64,000 bases of DNA from a virus (IMGVR_UViG_2597490295_000013:21285-85284), one strand, 5' to 3'. Positions 14 to 54,761 are shown, counted from the stretch's first letter. The notes: a model not told the origin generated them from the letters alone. Program-made: numbers and translations.

Positions 14-54
14 ATTATAACATAACTAAACTTTTAATAATACTCTGCGGTGTA
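14..54 (-). promoter_or_regulatory. Leftward sigmaA-like promoter preceded by the TACACCG motif; its gene lies left of the window
   Basis: Minus strand: TACACCGC-AGAG-TATTAT-17 nt-TATAAT with extended TG, then AGAAAGG RBS at the window edge. Confidence 0.7.
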
Positions 55-84
55 TTCATAAATTATTTTCAGTGCAATTTCTTT

Positions 85-125
85 TACACCGCACCATAGT
101 ATAATAACTCTATATATGGTATACT
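85..125 (+). promoter_or_regulatory. Rightward (antisense) promoter with the same motif geometry
   Basis: TACACCGC(85-92)-ACCA-TAGTAT(97-102)-17 nt-TATACT(120-125) with extended TG; same architecture as the leftward cassette promoters. Confidence 0.65.
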
Positions 126-131
126 GTAAGT

Positions 132-212
132 AGATAAAGAGTTAAGAAAACATATAGTAATACCTCCTTTCTTGTAAGGGTTAGCTAGTCGGTGGCTGAC
201 TCTTACTTTGTA
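132..212 (+). ncRNA. Candidate ~80-nt small RNA carrying an anti-Shine-Dalgarno sequence and a 3' hairpin
   Basis: Follows promoter 85-125; contains ACCTCCTTTCT (162-172); 12-bp stem 174-185/195-206 whose two G-U pairs form only on the + strand; TTTGT follows; no ORF. Confidence 0.45.
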
Positions 213-252
213 AATTCTATATACACCGCTTTATCCGGTGTATTACCATACT

Positions 253-278
253 AAAAGAAAACTACCAATAAATGGTAG
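253..278 (-). terminator. Intrinsic terminator of gene 279-704
   Basis: CTACCA-5 nt loop-TGGTAG stem followed by a U-rich tract, directly after the TAA. Confidence 0.75.
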
Positions 279-704
279 TTAAAATTCTTCTGGTAAATTT
301 CTCCATGCTTTACTTGCTTTTCTAGCAATTATTTTTTTTTCTATTGCTGACATTACTAATTCAGTATTTTTTCTTAAAGATTTTTCAATTTTTTCAAATC
401 TTTCTTTCTCTGATAATTCCATAAAATTAATAAAAGATTGTTTATTATATTGTATAAAATCTTTTTCACCTGTCATAATTGTATTGAGATTAGATGTATA
501 TGTGCCTTCCATTAATTGGTTATTATACAAAAATTTTATTTTTACTATAATAAAAAATCTGTTATTACTTCTTTTGTAACTAATTAATCGGATATTTACT
601 CTTTCAATTTCTTTCTTGTCTAGTATAATATAGGTGACATATAAAATTCCTATTATCCCAAATACTAACATAAACATAAATATTGCTTGTATAATTTCAT
701 TCAT
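279..704 (-). CDS. Hypothetical protein with an N-terminal transmembrane helix
   Basis: 141 aa; RBS AGAAAGGGAG; hydrophobic residues 5-27; own promoter (731-771) and terminator. Confidence 0.8.
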   Translation of the reverse strand: MNEIIQAIFMFMLVFGIIGILYVTYIILDKKEIERVNIRLISYKRSNNRFFIIVKIKFLYNNQLMEGTYTSNLNTIMTGEKDFIQYNKQSFINFMELSEKERFEKIEKSLRKNTELVMSAIEKKIIARKASKAWRNLPEEF

Positions 705-853
705 TTAATACACTCCCTTTCTGTAACTCTATTATCTCATATATGCTAAGAAAAAGATACTGTCCGGTGTATTAAAAAATTATACATTTTATTATCCAGT
801 GTATTAAAATTAGGCATACACCGCTTTATCCGGTGTATAAAAAGATGGAATCC

Positions 854-1027
854 TTAAATAACAGGAAACCATACCTTTTCAAGATGCAGATATTCATAAT
901 AAATATGGTAATCTCTACCAAATATAATTTTAGTGAATCTCTTATGACCACCATATTCACAAGGATTGTAAATATATCCTTGTTTTTCTAATCTTCTTAC
1001 TAATTTGTTAAATTCTGTATTTTTCAT
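854..1027 (-). CDS. Small hypothetical protein (57 aa), missing from the ORF track
   Basis: AGGAG RBS then ATG at 1027: MKNTEFNKLVRRLEKQGYIYNPC...KVWFPVI, TAA at 854-856. Confidence 0.7.
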   Translation of the reverse strand: MKNTEFNKLVRRLEKQGYIYNPCEYGGHKRFTKIIFGRDYHIYYEYLHLEKVWFPVI

Positions 1028-1029
1028 AC

Positions 1030-1377
1030 TCAACTCCTATCTATCAAAACAACTTGCAAACTATCTCTAAATGCTATCTCATAAGTATTTTCTTTAACTG
1101 CTAAAATTTTTGTTATAAAATTAGTTACTAAAATATTTTTAAATTCTTCAACATATTTTCCAAATTCTTCCATTCCTTTTTCTGTAAAATAACAATGACC
1201 AATTTTTTCATTTAAGCTATAATCTTGTGGATTAATGATTGGTAAATTTCTTTTAAATTGGTATGATGCTGTAGTATTATATAAATTTCTGTGCATTTCA
1301 TCGGGAATATTCATATCCCTAAACATTCCTACCCATTCATTCACTATATCATCAAAAAATTCTAATCTATAAAACAT
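1030..1377 (-). CDS. Hypothetical early protein ending at TGA (stop, or a 10-codon extension to TAG 1000-1002 under code 4)
   Basis: 115 aa; GAGGTG RBS; promoter TTGTGC-17-TATAAT with the motif upstream; TGA overlaps the RBS region of the next gene. Confidence 0.75.
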   Translation of the reverse strand: MFYRLEFFDDIVNEWVGMFRDMNIPDEMHRNLYNTTASYQFKRNLPIINPQDYSLNEKIGHCYFTEKGMEEFGKYVEEFKNILVTNFITKILAVKENTYEIAFRDSLQVVLIDRS

Positions 1378-1535
1378 AATTCCACCTCATTTCTATATAA
1401 TAATTATATCATATTTTACTAGAAAGCACAACTATGCGGTGTATAGGAATTCTTTTCCGGTGTATTCAGCAAGGGTAATTACATTTACACCGTGTCTTCC
1501 GGTGTATTGACAGTAAAAAAAGAGAAATTAATCTC

Positions 1536-2168
1536 TTAATATAATTCTCTATCATAAAATTGACAAGTGCCAGTGTCACATATTAAATAGGTATTTCTGT
1601 TTGAAGTGCTACATAATATATTATTATAATGGATATCACTTATTTGATATCCTTTTTTTCTAAATATATTATCAACAAATTCTTTAAATTTTACCATTCC
1701 TTTACAATGAATATTTTTAGGTTTTACACCTTTCTCTTGGATTAAAATAGTAAAATTTTTATAAACAAATATATCTACAACTTTTAACAAATGTTTTTGT
1801 AATGGCGAAAATTTCAAAGCTCTATAATTTAATGCTTCAATAATATTTTGATTATGATACATGAATCTGTCCTCAATTCCTAACCATATTTTAACAGATT
1901 CTTTATTAACTCCTAAATTTAAAATAGAAATAGTATTAAGATAATTTCTGTTAGTAATATGATTATTTTCAATTTCTTTCATTATACGTTTATATCCTAA
2001 TTTGGGTAATAATTCATAATCAGACATTTCAGTGTATCTTTCAATTTTTATTACTAAATTATCATTCAATGTATATACATCCCTAGAAATTCCACAGCCT
2101 AACATTTGTATATCGTTTTTATTGTCAAATATTTCCATTGCTTGTTTTCTTAATTCCTCTCTATCCAT
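1536..2168 (-). CDS. Protein kinase-like (atypical kinase fold) early protein
   Basis: Gly-rich loop LGCGISRDVY, VIKIE lysine strand, catalytic-loop-like SDIHYNNI and DFG-like ICDTG in kinase order. Confidence 0.55.
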   Translation of the reverse strand: MDREELRKQAMEIFDNKNDIQMLGCGISRDVYTLNDNLVIKIERYTEMSDYELLPKLGYKRIMKEIENNHITNRNYLNTISILNLGVNKESVKIWLGIEDRFMYHNQNIIEALNYRALKFSPLQKHLLKVVDIFVYKNFTILIQEKGVKPKNIHCKGMVKFKEFVDNIFRKKGYQISDIHYNNILCSTSNRNTYLICDTGTCQFYDRELY

Positions 2169-2390
2169 TTTATTCTTCCTTCCATTTTATGATAGTTAGG
2201 AATAGGTTAGACCAGAGTCTAGTCAGTAGTCTAACTCATTTGTAACTATACTTAATTATATCATAGGTTTTAAGAAAATACTATTATGCGGCGTATTTCT
2301 CTTCCGGTGTATCAGCGGTGTATTTTGAGTGGAGTAATCACGTTTACACCGCACTTTCCGGTGTATTCATGTCCTAAAAAAAATGAAAGA

Positions 2391-2936
2391 TTACTCTTCC
2401 ATTTTAGCAAGTGCTTTTGCCATTGCATAGGCATTTTTATTCGCTCTGTATTCTGTTCTACACCATCTCATATAAAATTTTTGTTGATTATCTCTATCTT
2501 TTTCTATCCTTACATATTTTCTATTTATTTTTTTATCAATTTCTAAATCTTCCCAGAATCTAGCAGGATTATCAAGATAATCTAACCAGTGTCCCAATTC
2601 ATGTAATATCGCATATTCTTCAAGCCCAAAATTAGGATTAATTTTTTTCATTTTTCTTTCAATTTGTTTTATTGCTTTTGGAAAATCTTTCTTAAATAAT
2701 TGAAGGTCTGAATCTGAAAAACGCAATATAGTATCATTCTCTTCAATTCTAGGTATAATATTATCTGTTCGAAACATTGAATAATCTAAATCATTCAATT
2801 TATTAATATCACCTTTAATAGCTAATGAAATAGGATATATTCTATTAATTTTTAAAGTAACACTATTAAAATAATGAGGATATAATTTTTTCATTTTTTC
2901 AAATATTTTTTTTGCTTTAATTTCTGATTCCATCAT
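2391..2936 (-). CDS. HExxH motif protein (ImmA/IrrE-like zinc metallopeptidase fold)
   Basis: ILHELGHWLD motif and a downstream EYRAN; start moved to ATG 2936 because the RBS AGAAAGGAAG and the promoter lie inside the longer predicted ORF. Confidence 0.5.
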   Translation of the reverse strand: MMESEIKAKKIFEKMKKLYPHYFNSVTLKINRIYPISLAIKGDINKLNDLDYSMFRTDNIIPRIEENDTILRFSDSDLQLFKKDFPKAIKQIERKMKKINPNFGLEEYAILHELGHWLDYLDNPARFWEDLEIDKKINRKYVRIEKDRDNQQKFYMRWCRTEYRANKNAYAMAKALAKMEE

Positions 2937-3023
2937 TTCTAACACTTCCTTTCTATAATCATTATAACATAAATACAAAGAGAATACTATTGTGCGGTGT
3001 ATAAAGATATTAAAAAAGGAAGA

Positions 3024-3302
3024 TTATTCCTTTTCTGAAACAATCTCAATAGTTTCGCCCAGAATTTTTTCTAATTCGGCAACTGTATATTTTTTTACCT
3101 TAATTGGTCTATTATCTTCAATAACACCATTTGAAGCTTCATAATAAATTTCATTATTATTTTTATTAAATTCTCTTTTAACCCAAAATCCATCAGAATT
3201 TTCATAATAAATTTTATTATTATTTTTATCAAATACAGAAAAAGAATCATCTTGGTATCTTATAATATATTCACCTTTTAACTCAACACCTTTTAATTTC
3301 AT
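3024..3302 (-). CDS. Phage hypothetical protein with a tandem (NNNxIYYExSxG) repeat
   Basis: 92 aa; two copies NNNKIYYENSDG / NNNEIYYEASNG; own promoter TAGTAT-17-TATACT. Confidence 0.75.
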   Translation of the reverse strand: MKLKGVELKGEYIIRYQDDSFSVFDKNNNKIYYENSDGFWVKREFNKNNNEIYYEASNGVIEDNRPIKVKKYTVAELEKILGETIEIVSEKE

Positions 3303-3601
3303 AGCTTCACTTCCTTTCTAATTATAGTATATCATAATATTACAGGTAATACTACTATACGGTGTATAATAAATTTTATCCGGTGTATTCCTGGTCATAA
3401 GCGGTGTACGGAAAGAAGCGGTGTATTAGCGGTGTAGGTCCTGGTCGTGAGTGCGGTGTATATTATACACCGGAAGTTCCGGTGTATTTATTTGCGGTGT
3501 ATTTACTTGACAGTTGCGGTGTAATACACCGACCCGTCGGTGTATTTCCTGGTCGTCCTTTGGGTACCAAATTATGGGAATAGAATTGCGGTGTATTGAG
3601 T

Positions 3602-3630
3602 ATAAAAAAAAATAGGGAATTAATCCCTAT
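3602..3630 (-). terminator. Intrinsic terminator, an exact 29-nt duplicate of 4382-4410
   Basis: Minus strand ATAGGGATTAATTCCCTATTTTTTTTT overlapping the radC stop codon. Confidence 0.8.
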
Positions 3631-4088
3631 TCTATTGTTCCATATTCTTTGAAACTGTAAAATTTATTTTCAGAACCTATAATAATATGGTCTAACACTT
3701 TTATTCCTAAAAGTTCCCCACAGTCACACAATTTTTCTGTTATTTTAAAATCTTCACCACTTGGTTCGGGATTCCCACTTGGATGGTTATGCATCAATAT
3801 AATACTTGAACAATTTTCAGCGATTGCATATTTAAATACGTCTCTAGGATGAACAATTGAACAATTTAAAGTACCGCTTGATATCTGTCCGATTCCAATA
3901 ATTTTATTCTTTGTATTTAATGCAATAACCCAAAATTTTTCTTGTGCTAATTCCCTTGCTTCTAATAAATCAGCGATTTCACTTATTTTAGTTGGTGAGT
4001 TAATTGTATATTCAATTAATGCATCATTTACTTCACACGCTTCGATTCTTTTTAGTCTCATTTCATATACAGATAATAATTTTTTCAT
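3627..4088 (-). CDS. radC: RadC-like JAB domain protein
   Basis: EKFWVIALNTKN, SGTLNCSIVHPRDVF, HNHPSG...SGED JAB metal motif, VLDHIIIG. Confidence 0.93.
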   Translation of the reverse strand: MKKLLSVYEMRLKRIEACEVNDALIEYTINSPTKISEIADLLEARELAQEKFWVIALNTKNKIIGIGQISSGTLNCSIVHPRDVFKYAIAENCSSIILMHNHPSGNPEPSGEDFKITEKLCDCGELLGIKVLDHIIIGSENKFYSFKEYGTIE

Positions 4089-4381
4089 AATATCCTCCTT
4101 TATTAATTGTTTATCGGTTATACCTTATTATAGCATTAATAAAGAATTTATTCAACTATGCGGTGTATTAAAATTTTATTGCGGTGTATTTCCGGTGTAT
4201 TTTCCAGGTTGCGGTCGGCGTACGGACTAGGGACTGGAAATTTCCGGTGTATAAATAATGCGGTGTATTTTCCTGGTCGTCTTTGGCTCACGGACTTTAG
4301 AGGATAGATTTGCGGTGTATTTTTCCTGGTCGCGGTCGGTGTACGGATTATTGGGCAGAGATTTGCGGTGTATAAATAAGC

Positions 4382-4410
4382 ATAAAAAAAAATAGGGAAT
4401 TAATCCCTAT
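4382..4410 (-). terminator. Intrinsic terminator identical to 3602-3630
   Basis: Same 29-nt sequence, overlapping the stop of 4400-4690. Confidence 0.8.
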
Positions 4411-4690
4411 CTTCTAAATATTCTACGTATTTATCAATATATGAGAATATTCTAAGTATTCCCAAACTTGCTGGAATATACCTCCATTGGATCTTTTTGT
4501 CATTAATTCCAATCCCTGGAAGTACTTCCGCTACCTTACAATAAATTACTGTTGTCTTTTTTAATACTAATTTAGATAATTCTGTCAAAACTGAAATGGA
4601 ATCTTTTCCCTGGGAAATCGTTCCATCTTCCCTGGTTTCTATATCTATTAATTTGGATAATTCTGGAATTTCGAATCTATATGTTAACAT
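4400..4690 (-). CDS. Hypothetical early protein
   Basis: Start moved to ATG 4690 behind the shared RBS AAAGGGGTAAAAA; TAA stop inside the terminator. Confidence 0.7.
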   Translation of the reverse strand: MLTYRFEIPELSKLIDIETREDGTISQGKDSISVLTELSKLVLKKTTVIYCKVAEVLPGIGINDKKIQWRYIPASLGILRIFSYIDKYVEYLEDRD

Positions 4691-6149: not shown

Positions 6150-6403
6150 TATAATACCTTCCTTTCATTCATTGGTTATACTAACTTGATGCTAGTATAA
6201 CGCTATTACACTTATATGATACTTATTATCGGTTAGTACCAAACAAGTGTTCTATTATGTTTTCAATGTGCTTTTAGAAGTCGCGACACGTCCGCTTTAT
6301 AACTTCCTGTGGTACTTATTAAATTATGATACATTATATATATACCTTATAAAAATACCTCTAAACATTTATTTTAAAAATAATTCAAGTTTTTTACTGT
6401 ATT

Positions 6404-6422
6404 GTAATGAGAATCATTCTTA
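6404..6422. promoter_or_regulatory. Fur-box-like 7-1-7 inverted repeat
   Basis: TGAGAAT-C-ATTCTTA (6408-6422); the 19-mer matches GATAATGATAATCATTATC at 14 of 19 positions. Confidence 0.45.
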
Positions 6423-6725
6423 ATGGATATTTAAGTCTTAACCCAAAAGTCATGTATACCCTATATCAGCATTTTAAAGTGCCTAGAATCAATTTTAATA
6501 TCATTCTAGTATTATAATATTATACCATGTTAAAACCGTTTAAATCTAAAATAAAGCATTATAGAATATATAAAAATATTTTAAAATATCTATATAATCA
6601 CTATTTTATTTTATGCAATAAAAATATATTAGTAAAAATAATCATGCTACTTTTATTGCATAACTAAAAAAAATTTATGCTACTTTTGTTGCACTGGTCA
6701 TGCAAGTTTTATGCAACTTAGTTTT

Positions 6726-6916
6726 GACTGTTATATCCTTAACACATTCAATTATCTAATTGTGTCAAACAATAAGAATATTAAGTGTGATATAATTAAC
6801 GATGCAGTTATCTAATTGTGTGAAACAATAAAACAATTGACTGTTATATTGTTAACACATTCATTTGCATGTTATTTCCTTAACACATTCAATTATCTAA
6901 TTGTTTGACACAATAA
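6726..6916. repeat. Cluster of imperfect direct repeats in the divergent non-coding region (iteron- or terminus-like)
   Basis: CCTTAACACATTCAATTATCTAATTGT twice (near 6737 and 6878); TTATCTAATTGT three times; GACTGTTATAT twice. Confidence 0.6.
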
Positions 6917-7714
6917 CACAATCGGGGTTATATATTATTTTCTTGCAATTGTGTGTATTTTCTTGATTGTTTGAATTGTTTGAATAATTTGAATTGTTTA
7001 GACAATACAAACAATGACGTTTATTTCCAGGACTTCCAAGAGTTACCAGTCCTGGGGTATTTTACCAGGACTGGAAGAGGGGGGTAGTTTTGGGAATATC
7101 TTCCATGGAAAATACTGGAAAGTGCGGGTGTAGTTCCTCTACCTACATTGACATTCTAAAACACGTAGTATACAAGTTCCTCTACCTACGTTGACCTTTT
7201 TTAATCCTTAGTGTACAAACCCTAACATATTTTCCAGGACATACGTACTTTCCCTCTGTTTTATAAGTATCTAATTTCTTTTAAACCGCGTCTAAAGTAT
7301 TAAAAGAAACTATATTATACCAAAAGCTAGTTTTCGAGAAAGAAGAAACATTATATATTATATATAAATCTATTTGAACCGCGTCTAAAATATTAATATA
7401 TAATATCCCTATCCTTTGTCTCTTTCTCTTGGGGCAAGCCGTTAGGCTTGCTATAGGAGATATAGGTATAGGAAAACTAGGAAAACTAGATAACAATTTA
7501 TAGAGAGTACCTTACCTCATACTTCGTTCTTTTCGCTTTCCGGAAAAAAATGGTATAATAAAGATAGAGAGAAAACGAGTAATAAACAAATAAATAATAT
7601 AGAAGATTTAAAAGAATTTATATTAAATTATAAATATACTGAAATTATAATCAAATGAGCGCACTCTGTGCTTTTTTAGATATAGGTGCGGTTTTAACTG
7701 AATTGGAGGTAATT

Positions 7715-7936
7715 ATGGCGTTGACAGTAGTAGAGAATGGTCAAGAAGTTATCTTAAAAGAGATAGATTGAGGAATAAAGTTAAAAAGAAAATTAGAAAG
7801 CATGGGATTAACACCTGGTGTTAAAATAACTATGATTCAAAGCTCGTCATTTGGACCTTGTATTGTTGAGGTAAGAGGAACAAGACTTGCGCTTGGAACT
7901 GAAATTATAGCTAAAATATTTGTGCGGTTTAAATAA
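7715..7936 (+). CDS. feoA: FeoA ferrous iron transport protein A (one TGA=Trp); absent from the ORF track
   Basis: GGAGG RBS; MALTVVENGQEVILKEID(W)GIKLKRKLESMGLTPGVKITMIQSSSFGPCIVEVRGTRLALG: typical FeoA L-x-x-M-G-L-x-P-G and VRG-x-R-LALG motifs. Confidence 0.85.
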
Positions 7937-8057
7937 ATTTAACGCAATAGATGAGGACTTTACGTTCTTCGTTTATTGTGTTTTTTACATAAATATGTTA
8001 TAATAAAAGTAGGAATAATAATTTGAACACTTTTGTCCAAATACTATAAATATAAGA

Positions 8058-9140
8058 ATGGTGGTGAAAATAATCAAACTTAAACTAGATACAACTATAA
8101 AAACCCAAGAGGAACGAATGGAATATATTAAAAAAATAATAGATTCCCCGGAATTTAGACCTAATTCATGGGTTTTGGAACTATTGACTAACTATGTTCT
8201 ATTTTTGAAGCCAAGAAAAGACCATTCAATTATAAGTGATAATAGACGTAAAACAATAAGGAAAAGAGAAACTTCAACAGAAGGACTTAAAGAAAAATTT
8301 GAAACTGGAGAAGATGCGATTTACAATTTAATTAGAAATGATAAGAATATGATATTATCTCCGAAAGTAACTATAACTCCACGAGATATTGCGGAACATA
8401 TTGAATTGAAACAATTAGTAGATACCATAAAAGAATGAGATGCGGAAATGAAGAGAAAAAATCTAACAGGGAAGAACCTGTATAGAGCAAAGAAAGCATT
8501 AATAGAGATGCGTCAGATGCAATACATAATTAAGGAAGAACTGAATAAACCATCAAGAATGAGAAATTTTAGAAAGACAACTTTAGAAATGCAGTTTAGT
8601 ATTGACACATGGTATATAAAAGAAGATGGAGACGTAAAATTAGTTAGTGAAGATACTATAGATTTTAAAGAGGGGAAGCACATAGAGATGTTGCTTTATT
8701 ATTACCCGAAGCTTATAGATTCTGCTTGAGATTTTAACAAAAGTGAAATGAAACATATATTATGGGATTTGGAATTACTTATTAATGCGTCATTAAAAGA
8801 AAAACCAGCTTGAAAAGATATTATTATTTGGAAAATAGATAAAAGAACTAATAAAGATATTAGAGAAATGTTACGTGAAGACCATAATTTGATCTATTCA
8901 GAAGAATATATTTCTACTTTATATAGGAATAAAATTCCTGCATTTATTGCGGAATATTATAGAATATCAGTAGAAGATTGGTATCATCTTAATAAAGTGA
9001 AAGGCACTTATAAAAAATGTAATAGATGCGGCGAACAGAAATTAATGAATAATACAAATTTTTCATTAAACAAAGGTAGTAAAGATGGGTTCTATTCCAT
9101 TTGTAAATCTTGTCGAAAAAAGAAAAATAAAAAACAGTAA
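8058..9140 (+). CDS. Conserved phage protein with a C-terminal CxxC-x-CxxC zinc finger (360 aa, 3 TGA)
   Basis: Track fragments 8058, 8448 and 8868 are in one frame joined by TGAs; KCNRCGEQK...ICKSCRK; upstream promoter TTGTGT-17-TATAAT (7976-8004). Confidence 0.8.
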
Positions 9141-12987: not shown

Positions 12988-14063
12988 ATAAGGGTAGCTT
13001 TGCTTACGAAAAATTGATTCAGGTATTATTATGACAAGTAATTAAGCCAAAAGATGCATTCATCCTTGGTGGAGATTATCGTATCCCAATGATGCATGGT
13101 CTCCTTGATAAAAATTTTGTTAAAGAACTAAAAGCTGACGGTACTTATAATGAAACATCTTTTAACAGAGAATATGGTTCACGTTGGTCAGGCACTAAAG
13201 ATGGAGCTTTTTTTGACGCAGAAATATTTACAAAATATAGAATGCTAGGACATGCTGAATTTTCTCCAGACGGAAGAAGCAGTAAAGATACTTTTTATAT
13301 ATTTGGAATTGATGTTGCTCGTCATAGAGCCCAAACAGTAGTAGTTATTATTAAAGTAACTTTAAATCAAACAACAGGTCTTTGGGATAAAAGAGTTGTA
13401 AATATGCATGTTTATGAAGATGCGCATTTTGATGATCAATGTGGTGAAATTAAATATTTATTTAATATATTTAGACCAAGAGCAATCGTAATTGATGGTA
13501 CTGGTTTAGGTACTGGTTTAATAGATCCATTAGTAAAACGAACAGAATATAACGGTATCGTTTACGAACCTTTTGGTGTAATTAGTGAAAAACATAAAGA
13601 AGATTATGAACAATTTATACAACCAGATACAATTCCTGTTTTATATATTATTAAAGCAGATCCAGCAATGAACAGTGCAATGCACTCAAATATATATGCG
13701 CAATTAGTTGGCGGAAGAATGAAATTTTTAATTGATGAACGTACAGCTAAAACGAAGTTTGCTTCAAGAAAGAATTGAAATACTTTATCATCAGAAGATA
13801 GGGCAAGAAAGTTAAAACCATTTACATTAACTTCTATATTAAAGGAAGAAATGTTAAACTTACGTCGAGAGGGCGAAGGTGGAGACATTCGTTTGAAAAA
13901 AGTTCGAACTACAGTTGGTAAAGATAAATTCTCTGCTCTTGAAAATGGTCTGTATTATATTTATTTATTAGAAAGAGATAAAAGAAAAAAATTAAATATA
14001 GATGTTAAGGCTATAGTAAAGATGACTAAGAAAACAAAAAAACAATGGAAAAGATGGAAATAA
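12988..14063 (+). CDS. terL: Terminase large subunit, exon 2 (nuclease domain; 2 TGA)
   Basis: FGIDVAR, VIDGTGLG and KDKFSALE motifs; fragments 13089 and 13851 joined in frame by TGA. Confidence 0.88.
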
Positions 14064-14130: not shown

Positions 14131-15573
14131 ATGCTTAATAATAAAAGATTAAAAGATTATATAGCGCAAGGAAAAGATTTAGAAGCCTTTAAGGGTCAAG
14201 AAGCTCTTTATAATCCTACCGTATTACCTAAATTTACTTTTTCAGAAGAAGATATTAGGACTGCTATAGATGGGTTAAATGTAGCAAAAATGAGAGATAT
14301 ATCAATGTATTTTTATTATGCTAGCAAAGCTTATGGTAGATTAGTTGATTATTTTGCTAATATGTTAACTTTTGATTATTTAATAATCCCAAAAAGACAA
14401 AATGGGAAAAAGAAAAAAACAATTGATAGTGAAAAAGTACAAGAAGAATTATCTAAAGTTCTTAAAACTTTTAAGTTGAGTAGAATCAAACAAGAGTCTA
14501 GAGAGATTGCATCAAAAGTTTTAATAGAAGGTGTTTTTTATGGATATTTAATGTATTCAAAAGAAAGTATGGATATTCAAGAATTACCTTATAAATATTG
14601 TACTACAAATTTTGAATATATGGGAGTACCTATTATTGAATTTAATTTAGAATATTTTGATAGAGAATTTAGAACTGAAGAACAAAGAGTTTTAATTTTA
14701 GAAATTTATCCTAAAGAAATATATGATGCTTATAATGCATATAAGAATGGCGGACCAAAAATATTTTATGTAGAACCTAAGCATTCTATGGTATTTGCAT
14801 TAAATGATAATAACATTCCTTATCTTATTAGCATAATTTTAGATATTATTAGATTTAATAATTATAAAGCTATAGATGAAATTAGAAATGAACAAGAAAT
14901 ATTAAAACTTATTATACAAAAACTTCCAGTTAATAAAGATGGTACGTTAATTTTCTCTCCAGAAGAGATTACTTATCTACATACGATAGTATCGGATATG
15001 TTAGAAGAAATGCCATCAATAGATTTAATTACAACTTATGCGGAAATATCAACTGAGAATTTACAAGAACAACGGAATTCAATGCAAAACTCTATGGGTA
15101 ATGCCAAGAGTAACATTTATTCTGAAGCTGGAGTAAGTGAACAGTTAATGGATGCATCTGGTAATGTAGCATTAGAAAAATCTATTAAAACTGATGAAGG
15201 TGTAATGTTTAACTTATTAGAATCTATAAGGAATTTTTTTCAATTTGTTTTAGAAACAGAGTTCTCAGGTAAGAAGTTATCCTACAGTCTTATCATGCCA
15301 GAATTAACTATTTATAATAGACAAGAATGGTTTGATAGATACCTCGAAGGTGCACAATATGGATACAGCAAATTGCTAGTCGTATTAGCAATGGGCATTG
15401 ATCAAGAAGATTTTTATGATTTAATGGATTATGAAAATAATATTCTTAATATTGTGGATCAATTAATTCCTTTACAATCTAGTCATACTACTACAGGTGA
15501 CGAAGGCGGTAATCCAGGGAAACCAGATGAGAATAAAGATGACAAAACAATAGTTAATCAGAATAATGATTAA
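14131..15573 (+). CDS. Portal protein
   Basis: 480 aa directly after TerL; size, position and acidic C-terminal tail typical of a portal; no TGA. Confidence 0.75.
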   Translation: MLNNKRLKDYIAQGKDLEAFKGQEALYNPTVLPKFTFSEEDIRTAIDGLNVAKMRDISMYFYYASKAYGRLVDYFANMLTFDYLIIPKRQNGKKKKTIDSEKVQEELSKVLKTFKLSRIKQESREIASKVLIEGVFYGYLMYSKESMDIQELPYKYCTTNFEYMGVPIIEFNLEYFDREFRTEEQRVLILEIYPKEIYDAYNAYKNGGPKIFYVEPKHSMVFALNDNNIPYLISIILDIIRFNNYKAIDEIRNEQEILKLIIQKLPVNKDGTLIFSPEEITYLHTIVSDMLEEMPSIDLITTYAEISTENLQEQRNSMQNSMGNAKSNIYSEAGVSEQLMDASGNVALEKSIKTDEGVMFNLLESIRNFFQFVLETEFSGKKLSYSLIMPELTIYNRQEWFDRYLEGAQYGYSKLLVVLAMGIDQEDFYDLMDYENNILNIVDQLIPLQSSHTTTGDEGGNPGKPDENKDDKTIVNQNND

Positions 15574-52460: not shown

Positions 52461-53567
52461 TTATTCTATAAAATTTAATTTATCATCTAATCATTTACCG
52501 TTTACATCAATTTCACGAATAAAGATACGTTCGTTATTGTCAATATATTTAGTTTGATGAAATTTAAAAATCATTTTATTATTTTCAATTCCTATAATTT
52601 CTATTTTACCTTGAACATGTGACATAATTAATTTAAATCTTTTACCAATACCATTCAAATATTGTTTAGTTTCTTTTACTAATTCATAAGATTCAAGCAA
52701 TGTTTTTTGGAAACCAGCTTTAGCTCCTTTTACGGGTCTGCACTGGAATACATAGTATGGATTAATTCCGACTCTGGTTAATCCGTTTAATAGCTCCGCT
52801 AATACTTTAGGGTCATCATTTACACCTTTTAATATTACAGCTTGATTATTAATTGCAATACCTTTCTTTAAAAGCATATCAATCGCTCTTTTAGCTTCAA
52901 CAGTCAGTTCTCTAGGATGATTAAATTGTGTAATAATAACAATTTTTTTCTTATCATTATATTTAGCTAAAATATCTATAAGTTCTTGATCACCATAAAT
53001 TCTTTCAGGGAAAACTACTAATGCTCTTGTTCCAAATCTTATGAAATCTAAATGCTCAATCTCAACTAAATTCTTCAAATAATTTTCTATTTGTTCATTA
53101 CTCATACAGAATGAATCTCCACCTGTTAATAACACATTGTTAACTTCTTCATGTTCTTTTAAATATTTTATTGTTTCTTTCATTCTATTATTAATTTCAT
53201 CAGAATTAGATCCAACCATTCTTTTTCTAAAACAATGTCTGCAATACATAAAGCATGCGCTTGTAGTAAGCACTAAAGCTGTCGTACTATATTTATGTTG
53301 TAGTCCAGGCATTTTAGTATTTGATGATTCTCCTGATGTATCTGTGTCTCCCATAAGATCTGCTTCAAACGCGTTCGGGAAACATAGTTTTTTTATCGGA
53401 TCATTTGGATCATTTTCGTCTATTAAATTATAATAATACTTTGGAATACTCATAGGATATCTTTCACTAACAACTTTTAAAATATCTTTTTCTTCTTTAT
53501 CTATGTCCCATGAAACATCTTCAATTGCTTTTAAATTATCTTTCCATTTTTTTTCTCATGATTTCAT
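52461..53567 (-). CDS. KamA-family (lysine 2,3-aminomutase-like) radical SAM protein (368 aa, 2 TGA, the first at codon 4)
   Basis: GLQHKY, CFMYCRHCFRKR, VLLTGGD, IRFGTR, QFNHPRE, NQAVILKGVND, YYVFQCRPV; read-through gives a WLDD end. Confidence 0.88.
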
Positions 53568-53587
53568 TAATATTTGCTCCCTTTTGA

Positions 53588-54313
53588 TTAGTCATCTCAA
53601 TTCAAATATTTTTTTTCATTTAATTTACTACATCCAAATTTTCCAATACAAATAGCTTCTGCTTCGTCATCTGTAACTTTAAGTCCAAATTCTTTTAATA
53701 CATATAATTGAGCATTTCTTTTTAATTGTTGTCTATTAGTTCCTTTAATACCGCAGAACTTTCTTCATTCTGAACTATAAATAGATTCATACGAGATACT
53801 TAAAGCATGAGCAACTACTTTACATACTCCTAAAACCATTGACAACGTTTTAAATGTTCCTACATTTGATTCTAATTGTATGTCTTCAAAGTATACAATT
53901 TCTGGACTTTTCTCTTCAATAAAACTTTTCATTCATTTACTAATCATATAAAGTCTATGGATAGTATCCTTGCTAGCTGAAAAGTCAACTACCCCATAAC
54001 TAATTAATTTATTATTTTCTCAAACTGAATATCCTATAAGTCTTGAGGACTGGTCAAACGCTATCAATTTCTTTGAGTTTTTTGATTCTACGGGTACATA
54101 ATCATCTATTTTTATTTTTTCTTTTCTACTATCTGAGGTATTAGATATTTTTTCAATAGAAAGTTTACCGGTTTCATCGTATCTTTTTCTATATTTTTTT
54201 ATGGTTGCAAGAGAAGCATTCATTTTTTCAGCTATCTCTTGGTCAAAAAGGAAATCTTCAAACAATTTTTGCATTTCTTGTAGATTTTTTACAGATGGAT
54301 TAAATCTGCTCAT
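53588..54313 (-). CDS. ruvC: RuvC-like Holliday junction resolvase with an N-terminal HTH-like extension (241 aa, 4 TGA)
   Basis: LIAFDQSS...GYSV(W), VYFEDIQ, SSE(W)RKFCGIKG, DDEAEAICIG; mostly missing from the track because of TGAs. Confidence 0.8.
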
Positions 54314-54320
54314 GTTACAC

Positions 54321-54761
54321 CTACTTTCCAGTTGAGCCAAAACCGCCTTGACCTCTTTCAGTCTTTTCTAATTCTTTATAATCAGATACTTCTAAGAATC
54401 TACTAATTTCATATTTAGCAAAAATCATTTGTGCAATTCTATCTCCAACTTGTACAGTGTAAGGTTCATTGCTTAAATTAATTAAAGGTACTTTTAATTC
54501 TCCTCTATAATCAGAGTCAAGAGTTCCTACACAATTGATCATAGTAATTCCAAATTTTGCGGCTAACCCACTCCTAGGTCGTATTTGCATTTCTATGCCA
54601 ATAGGTAATTCAAAATACAATCCAGTTTTTATCATAACTCTTTCTCCTGGTTGTAAAGTAACAGTTTCTGTTGAATATATATCAGCACCAGCGCTGCCTT
54701 TAGTTTTATATTTAGGGATCACAGCAATAGCAGAATCCCTATAAATTTTTATTCCTATCAT
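54321..54761 (-). CDS. dut: Trimeric dUTPase
   Basis: GSAGADI, IRPRSGLA, GTLDSDYRGE, RGQGGFGSTG motifs. Confidence 0.97.
   Translation of the reverse strand: MIGIKIYRDSAIAVIPKYKTKGSAGADIYSTETVTLQPGERVMIKTGLYFELPIGIEMQIRPRSGLAAKFGITMINCVGTLDSDYRGELKVPLINLSNEPYTVQVGDRIAQMIFAKYEISRFLEVSDYKELEKTERGQGGFGSTGK

Follow-up and report, generated by a model that had tools for sequence, protein, structure and literature searches.

The 64,000-nucleotide stretch of viral DNA analysed here (IMGVR_UViG_2597490295_000013:21285-85284, in our numbering G000:C53:21285-85284, hereafter the window) is part of a 127,832-bp phage contig, C53, and opens inside an arm of small single-gene cassettes whose spacers are crowded with one seven-base word, TACACCG. 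The word stands at an exact distance and in a fixed orientation upstream of about 20 cassette promoters, the arrangement is kept in four related phages, additional copies are phased along the helix, nothing comparable is found in the presumed host, and C53 carries a second class of promoters that lack the word. We propose, with moderate confidence, that TACACCG is bound by a phage-encoded factor, which would contact the host RNA polymerase and activate a delayed-early regulon.

The word TACACCG and its promoters

Coordinates without a prefix are those of the window; "arm" designates the C53 region of small single-gene cassettes carrying the TACACCG cluster, and the word was counted on both strands. 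TACACCG/CGGTGTA occurs 37 times in the window, always within 48-4372, when 100 dinucleotide shuffles gave a mean of 0.84 and a maximum of 4 per 64-kb window. This exact recount agrees with an earlier reading of the sequence alone (the sequence-only reading), which had seen 37 copies in ~4.4 kb of intergenic DNA and none elsewhere in the window. Scanning the whole contig and its relatives enlarged the picture: the cluster extends left beyond the window edge to reach 84 copies at C53:12353-25656 (13.3 kb), 80 of them within 12 kb (C53:13651-25656), the other 114 kb of C53 hold only 4 copies, and the exact word recurs in four relatives. All 84 arm copies are intergenic, among small minus-strand genes, and 67 of them are oriented with the transcription of these genes. 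The full site spans ~10 bp, A-TACACCG-[C/G]-A, and one-mismatch variants are scarce in the arm (4 copies for each of the three commonest vs 84 exact).

The remaining ~2 Mb of the assembly bin, which we presume to be the host, contain 65 copies vs 56 of a reversed-word control; no two copies on the host contigs lie less than 100 bp apart and none stands in promoter geometry. Readings of the word as a Chi site, a restriction site or a packaging signal were dropped because the host is not enriched and the sites are locked to promoters. To our knowledge, no regulator has TACACCG as its site, and a literature search for the word returned only primers. An Rfam scan of the arm found nothing, nor did a similarity search match the arm to any deposited phage, and scans of viral and bacterial collections for single inverted pairs and triple direct repeats retrieved almost only chance matches or unrelated tandem repeats.

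Wherever an extended -10 element has a copy upstream, exactly 28 nt separate the word from the -10 hexamer (18 minus-strand and 2 plus-strand promoters in C53), and in C53 and the four relatives this proximal copy is always in the promoter's own orientation. The rule holds for 45 of 46 promoters over the five phage sequences and for 25 of 26 in the four relatives alone (11 in G001, 8 in L376, 1 in L375 and 5 in L383, which also has one at 29 nt), and the sequence between word and -10 is unconserved. With the -10 hexamer set at -12 to -7, the word occupies about -47 to -41, and 5 nt separate it from the -35 downstream. Read along the minus strand, a cassette starts with a terminator, often followed by an inverted pair TACACCG-N7-CGGTGTA and by 0-12 more copies, mostly co-oriented; then come the proximal copy, 5 nt, a weak -35, 17 nt, TGn with TATAAT or TATACT, a short leader, a strong ribosome-binding site of the AGAAAGGAGGTG type and the open reading frame. 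Most cassettes have one frame and a few units two or three.

Four modules of C53 consist of TACACCG-N5-TTGACA, with a perfect -35 at the usual offset and no -10 downstream (C53 L367:12347-12370, 13721-13744, 13756-13779 and 14234-14257), vs ~0.02 expected by chance on a rough estimate. Such orphan modules also occur in G001, L376 and L383. Unlike them, none of the motif promoters that do have a -10 has a perfect TTGACA.

The spacing of the extra copies, pooled over C53 and the four relatives, is far from uniform. Distances of 10, 20 and 23 bp do not occur among co-oriented copies, whose spacings peak at 11 bp (45 pairs), 21-22 bp (41 pairs) and 30-33 bp. Inverted pairs whose copies face each other prefer start-to-start distances of 11, 14 and 22 bp, and those pointing apart prefer 8 bp. 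This is the pattern that would be expected of a protein bound on one face of the helix with lateral contacts. A second short word, GA(C)CAGGAA or AACCTGGAA, precedes seven of the copies in the three largest arrays (window 3381-3595 and 4182-4372; L367:13685-13700).

C53 also carries about 25 promoters without the word, built as TTGACA or TTGACT, 17 nt and TGnTATAAT, and concentrated at 0-13.5 kb and 104-128 kb. Among candidates that precede a ribosome-binding site and an open frame, a -35 that matches TTGACA at five or more of six positions is seen in 15 of 26 motif-less promoters and in none of the 16 motif promoters (Fisher p = 1.3e-4), and the -10 is TATAAT in 7 of 16 motif vs 21 of 26 motif-less promoters. 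One gene is found in both settings: a methyltransferase gene is served by a consensus promoter outside the arm at 1419-2168 of C53 and lies inside the motif arm in G001:9363-10148 and L383:303-1076, which we take as evidence that cassettes may move between the promoter classes.

The eight promoters that the sequence-only reading had placed in the window (motif at 54, 85, 771, 1443, 2295, 3001, 3366 and 4167) were all recovered with the layout motif-N5-[-35]-N17-[-10]. Their -35 boxes are TATTAT, TAGTAT (four times), TATCTT, TTGTGC and TTGAAT, and their -10 boxes TATAAT, TATACT or GATAAT, each preceded by TGn. The stack of 13 copies described there is likewise borne out within 3360-3595. The features of the window are as follows.

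14..54, minus strand: motif promoter of a YopX-like 109-amino-acid gene that starts on the minus strand at C53:21282, just left of the window; TACACCG 54-48, -35 TATTAT 42-37, TGn and -10 TATAAT 19-14.
85..125, plus strand: the sole rightward motif promoter in the window; TACACCG 85-91, -35 TAGTAT 97-102, -10 TATACT 120-125.
222..242: inverted pair TACACCG-N7-CGGTGTA, after the terminator of gene 279-704.
279..4088, minus strand: putative regulated cargo, seven small genes, mostly without known relatives.
279..704, minus strand: gene for a membrane-anchored protein of 141 amino acids.
731..771, minus strand: motif promoter of gene 279-704; motif 771-765, -35 TATCTT, -10 GATAAT 736-731.
817..837: inverted pair directly past the stop codon of gene 854-1033; it scores as a terminator-like hairpin on the minus strand in a generic terminator scan.
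1403..1506, minus strand: control region of gene 1030-1377; proximal motif 1443-1437, -35 TTGTGC, -10 TATAAT 1408-1403; second copy 1464-1458, 21 bp upstream; inverted pair 1486-1506.
2255..2365, minus strand: control region of gene 1536-2168; proximal variant TACGCCG 2295-2289, -35 TAGTAT, -10 TATAAT 2260-2255; upstream copies 2311-2305 and 2322-2316; inverted pair 2345-2365.
2391..2978, minus strand: gene with an HExxH motif.
2961..3001, minus strand: motif promoter of gene 2391-2978; single copy 3001-2995, -35 TAGTAT, -10 TATAAT 2966-2961.
3326..3595, minus strand: promoter of gene 3024-3302; motif 3366-3360, -35 TAGTAT, -10 TATACT 3331-3326; 13-copy array to 3595, including inverted pairs 3466-3486 and 3525-3544 and GACCAGGAA co-motifs.
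3609..3633, minus strand: intrinsic terminator at the end of the cassette that lies upstream of the 3360-3595 array; repeated identically at 4387-4415.
4127..4372, minus strand: promoter of the RadC-like JAB gene 3627-4088; motif 4167-4161, -35 TTGAAT, -10 TATAAT 4132-4127; upstream, an 8-copy array in a single orientation throughout, up to 4372.

A promoter, a short leader, a strong ribosome-binding site of the AGAAAGGAGGTG type and a terminator are provided separately for each of the seven cargo genes, of which only the RadC-like JAB gene belongs to a Pfam family. The rightward promoter at 85..125 points against the gene flow into a stretch of ~90 nt that is free of open reading frames and contains ACCTCCTTTCT followed by a hairpin (promoter and stretch together, window 85-215, plus strand). 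ACCTCCTTTCT is complementary to the ribosome-binding sites of the cassettes, and the transcript from this promoter is a candidate small RNA of the same regulon.

The phage and its relatives

C53 resembles a large siphovirus, with genes for a portal, a tape-measure and a minor tail protein, PhoH, DNA polymerase, gyrase and RNA ligase 2, together with 24 tRNAs, and its distant relatives are 115-168-kb phages of Firmicutes. TGA is evidently a sense codon in this genome: the polymerase frame is open over 1,102 codons interrupted by TGA only, the polymerase, a resolvase and other genes (window 7715-64000 and the rest of C53) are open only when TGA is read through, and a tRNA with the anticodon UCA lies among the 24 (L370:10103-10176). 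The host contigs use the standard genetic code. Four sequencing runs contain this DNA, all of them DNA runs from one marine-sediment sample, which may be its source.

The relatives other than G001 were reached through protein clusters and homologues of the arm exonuclease; a search with the exonuclease alone led to one short contig only. The identities cited for those that keep the exact word are 69-77% for the exonuclease and 67% for the portal. One by one, the viral contig G001 (portal 67% identical) has 94 exact copies in a syntenic arm, where the reversed-word control scores 0; L376/L377 (exonuclease 69% identical) have 56 copies, L383/L384 (93% identical to that of C53) have 34, and L375 (71%) has 13 in 1.1 kb. 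In alignments of orthologous upstream regions, conservation is limited to the copies of the word and to the -10 region; how many copies there are, and how they are arranged, changes from one relative to the next. The gene content of the arm varies greatly as well, and cassette shuffling among the relatives is real.

This shuffling raises the question of whether the copies are anything more than structural or evolutionary remnants, i.e. recombination joints, RNA hairpins serving as terminators or 3' stabilisers, decoys or partition sites, so that the word would have no regulatory role. That modules persist while the gene content around them differs widely, and that the methyltransferase changes promoter class, fits such a reading, as does the terminator-like score of one inverted pair. 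The arm is also reminiscent of the T4-type PeSL cassettes, in which single accessory genes of a hypervariable region are bracketed by promoter and hairpin modules and whole cassettes differ between phages (PMC2839356, PMC4122927). Single accessory genes between repeated promoter-hairpin modules are indeed common to both, but PeSLs use ordinary early promoters without a factor-binding word or arrays, and the role proposed for them is recombination rather than regulation. Against a purely structural origin, seven bases are too short for homologous recombination and the flanks of the word are unconserved, and the promoter-proximal copies lie upstream of the transcription start and hence are not in the RNA. 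Segregation, which the sequence-only reading had kept as an alternative, finds no backing: searches of C53 and G001 for ParB_N and ParA-type proteins gave no match, and the sites are tied to promoters, spread over ~20 promoter regions. A parS/ParB system or an iteron origin would need cognate proteins and compact clusters, and neither fits the arm. Shuffling accounts for the multitude of modules but not for the exact word, the fixed spacing or the helical phasing, and we give the structural reading hardly any credence.

More distant relatives (exonuclease 45-56% identical) lack TACACCG, have mostly consensus promoters, and fill the arm with other words. In L379/L380 (ena:ERZ27276632:k141_114201 and a near-copy; exonuclease 46% identical), TGTCGAA, the Spo0A "0A box" word, occurs 59 times in 19.5 kb, where base composition predicts ~2 on a rough estimate. 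These copies are scattered, about a dozen of them within the exonuclease gene, and show recurrent spacings of 10, 20 and 30 bp. L381/L382 have TCTGACA(A) ~21 times, and four of their promoters share a different box, TTTAATTGCGGAACTTT, just upstream of the -35.

The 59 Spo0A-box words in the same arm of L379/L380 suggest that the word could be read by a protein of the host, either a global regulator or one associated with the polymerase, which would tie the early arm to host physiology. A precedent exists in the phi29-family phages, which use Spo0A boxes at early promoters (PMC2731898), and a host protein would be available immediately, so that no phage activator would have to be made first. 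However, the presumed host shows background counts of TACACCG, no paired copies and no promoter in the geometry, its bin contains only two OmpR-type regulators, and the TGTCGAA copies of L379 are partly intragenic and stand outside any promoter geometry of the TACACCG type. We consider a host reader very improbable.

Because related arms use different saturating words, a recurring design principle is suggested, and it is tempting to speculate that word-saturated early arms represent a general, undescribed phage design. Each lineage would pair a private word with a small, fast-evolving binder whose fold is not yet known to bind DNA; the word would serve as a polymerase-recruiting box near -44 and, in arrays and inverted pairs, as a concentration-dependent timer and insulator of swappable cassettes, and a change of word would isolate the regulons of co-infecting relatives. 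The words in question would be TACACCG, TGTCGAA and TCTGACAA, plus GTCCGATAA in another genome. We regard this generalisation as doubtful. In two unrelated phages of higher G+C content, G002 (IMGVR_UViG_3300023202_000068, 54352-54450) and G003 (IMGVR_UViG_3300031555_000973, 1280-1374), a divergent intergenic region holds a 2+3 array of the 11-mer ATACACCGCAA at 11-bp spacing; none of three queries (the helix-turn-helix protein and two family profiles) matched in G002/G003.

Proposed activation, possible shut-off and the search for a binder

The exact word, its fixed orientation, exact spacing and phasing, and its absence from the host, taken together, lead us to propose a protein that touches the polymerase next to the -35. 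TACACCG stands at a fixed distance and orientation beside the -35, as the factor site does in class II-like promoters. Activation is favoured because in C53 the word goes with weak promoters. A phage-encoded, sequence-specific protein would recognise A-TACACCG-[C/G]-A and, sitting at about -47 to -41, would recruit the sigma-A polymerase by touching its sigma region 4 or its alpha C-terminal domain. The consensus, word-less promoters would make the factor first and the ~20 cassette promoters would then fire together; with activation by the product of a consensus promoter, the arm would form a delayed-early class. The extra copies one to three helical turns upstream and the inverted pairs behind terminators would load more protein cooperatively, and both may also insulate the cassettes or buffer free protein, the extra copies perhaps in a decoy or titration role. 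The sequence-only reading had proposed an undescribed activator of a regulon of single-gene cassettes. Its core, a stereospecific cis-element by the -35 of these cassettes that belongs to an undescribed phage regulon, is strongly supported by the invariant spacing and orientation, the exact word in the four relatives, the helical phasing and, in C53, -35 boxes that are weak only where the word is present; activation, like protein binding, phage encoding and timing, is inferred.

As the main rival, the sites may serve a phage shut-off protein. The extended -10 promoters would then be self-sufficient and fire at once, to be blocked later, when a product of the arm or of a middle gene fills the arrays cooperatively and blocks or traps the polymerase, with the inverted pairs and the oriented copies between genes stopping read-through. 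From an upstream site, phi29 p4 represses a strong promoter through contact with RNA polymerase, which offers a parallel. Arrays of 8-13 copies and pairs just past terminators suit coating and roadblocks better than recruitment, and the best-conserved arm proteins are expressed from motif promoters, in agreement with negative feedback. The stoperators bound by gp71 of mycobacteriophage L5 offer another parallel: more than 20 asymmetric sites, bound by a monomer, lie in promoter regions and short intergenic spaces and are oriented with transcription (PMC9283540), and the TACACCG sites are asymmetric, intergenic and, for 67 of 84, aligned with the minus-strand genes. However, stoperators are 13-mers distributed genome-wide in temperate cluster A mycobacteriophages, where they silence elongation in lysogens and keep no fixed position before the -35, whereas the TACACCG sites keep to a single arm and to the exact geometry of its promoters. 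The nearest copy stops at -41, short of the region on which an extended -10 promoter depends, and a repressor needs neither a spacing fixed to the base pair nor a weak -35. In C53, moreover, it is the weak promoters that have the word rather than the strong. Genes for lysogeny did not come to light (neither repressor nor integrase among the C53 proteins scanned, in a scan that was not exhaustive), and comparable recoded phages are described as virulent. On balance, we judge shut-off unlikely, though far from negligible.

Several points weigh against the proposed activator. Promoters of the TRTGnTATAAT type can work in Firmicutes with neither a -35 nor an activator. The invariance of the spacing could in part be inherited through duplication of promoter modules, and arrays of up to 13 copies exceed what known activators need. 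A secondary group of same-orientation spacings, at 16-19 bp (40 pairs), is unfit for same-face phasing. In G001, where the motif promoters mostly have TTGnnn as their -35, the contrast between motif and motif-less -35 boxes is not significant (p = 0.16). Finally, Pfam, PHROG, fold and profile searches gave no DNA-binding protein that can be assigned to TACACCG, and the proteins confined to the clade yielded no informative fold or family apart from one PHROG match (below). OmpR-type and ArpU-type domains are absent from the phage. The ~130-amino-acid basic, sigma-region-4-like protein of the Ltr type of activators was not found on the phage with the models searched, namely TIGR01637, Sigma70_r4 and r4_2: TIGR01637 (ArpU-type) had no match, and the Sigma70_r4 and r4_2 matches were weak and fell in the helix-turn-helix of a RuvC-like resolvase. 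The open reading frame at 54020-54340 that had been considered as a sigma-region-4-like binder for its helix-turn-helix is in fact the N-terminus of this resolvase, a protein of ~250 amino acids (window 53454-54340, minus strand) whose parts are joined through four in-frame TGA codons.

Candidate binders were sought among clade-specific genes, defined as those that all four longer members share and that the distant L378, L379 and L381 lack. Three kinds emerge. The first is a family of three paralogues, A, B and C, of ~76-107 amino acids, in which one helix and three strands are combined with an acidic tail. The type A gene stands at the arm's end, after a consensus promoter; that of type B is inverted and has a motif promoter in front of it, and that of type C lies within the arm. 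The second is a basic protein of 76-79 amino acids, 68-87% identical across members and modelled as two long helices. The third, a 76-amino-acid protein with a CxxC...CxxC motif, weakly matches a PHROG "transcriptional regulator" (E = 8e-10), and its nearest deposited relatives, in Bacillus Herelleviridae, are annotated "transcriptional regulator" without evidence. This match apart, Pfam and PHROG scans of 40 small proteins found no DNA-binding family; the scans of arm proteins named no relative of MotA or AsiA either, although no search by name was made. For the A/B/C family and the basic protein, the AlphaFold models (predicted local distance difference test, pLDDT, 57 and 67.5, respectively) lacked the confidence or the complexity needed for a fold search, and profile searches of the PDB and the ESM Atlas returned nothing usable for the candidates. 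Should the general design hold, the acidic-tailed A/B/C family, the basic helical-hairpin protein of 76-79 amino acids and the 76-amino-acid CxxC protein would be the candidate binders.

Known systems compared

In their logic, the closest known systems are the Ltr/RinA/ArpU and Alt activators and the T4 middle promoters. The former (Ltr/RinA/ArpU, LtrA-C and TP901-1 Alt) depend on direct repeats of 7 nt, three or four of them, that lie immediately before a host-type promoter, and the repeat word determines their specificity (PMC3753634). TACACCG resembles such a heptad, with direct repeats at 11 and 21-22 bp upstream of promoters. However, an Ltr-type system serves one late promoter beside the activator gene and terS, whereas here ~20 early-type accessory promoters share 84-94 copies, inverted pairs included.

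T4 middle promoters have a good, often extended, -10 but lack a proper -35, and a phage word at a constant position unites many of them in one regulon. The likeness lies in a phage-specific promoter class with a fixed-position word, and to this extent the T4 MotA parallel drawn by the sequence-only reading is sound in its logic. It fails in position: the MotA box takes the place of the -35, with its centre at -30, whereas TACACCG is centred near -44 and a weak -35 is kept. T4 also lacks arrays of extra copies, unlike the TACACCG arm.

Two further systems come close in architecture. OmpR/PhoB sites are direct repeats with a 10-11-bp period that abut a weak -35, and the site of Mu Mor/C is centred near -43.5 at promoters lacking a -35; both kinds of regulator contact sigma region 4 or the alpha C-terminal domain. 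However, they serve single operons or small regulons without intergenic arrays of 8-13 copies, and the phage has no OmpR-type DNA-binding domain. From its two closest parallels, the Ltr-type and Alt activators and the T4 middle promoters, the TACACCG system differs in its scale (~20 promoters, 84-94 sites), its early accessory targets, its position near -44 and its arrays and inverted pairs.

If the proposed activation is correct, the word would define from sequence an early regulon in recoded, uncultured phages, and temporal control in such phages would become directly testable with reporters and pull-downs, the consensus promoters of the same genome being a built-in control for the ~20 word promoters. 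It would also mark a co-regulated early cargo of unknown function, probably in host takeover or counter-defence, and point to a DNA-binding protein that current family libraries miss.

Two stretches of C53 bordering on the cassettes deserve mention in their own right. A leader of ~230 nt (L367:12960-13200, minus strand) separates the arm's last operon from a consensus promoter; the two ends of this leader can pair as a stem of ~25 bp, and it has no Rfam match and is absent from G001. The 1.9 kb that separate the arm from the rightward genes (window 6150-8058) are non-coding and hold repeated words of their own, of the CAATTAGATAA type, GTCAACGTAGGTAGAGGAAC twice and TTAGACGCGGTT twice, and a FeoA-like open reading frame with an in-frame TGA lies at 7715-7936 on the plus strand.

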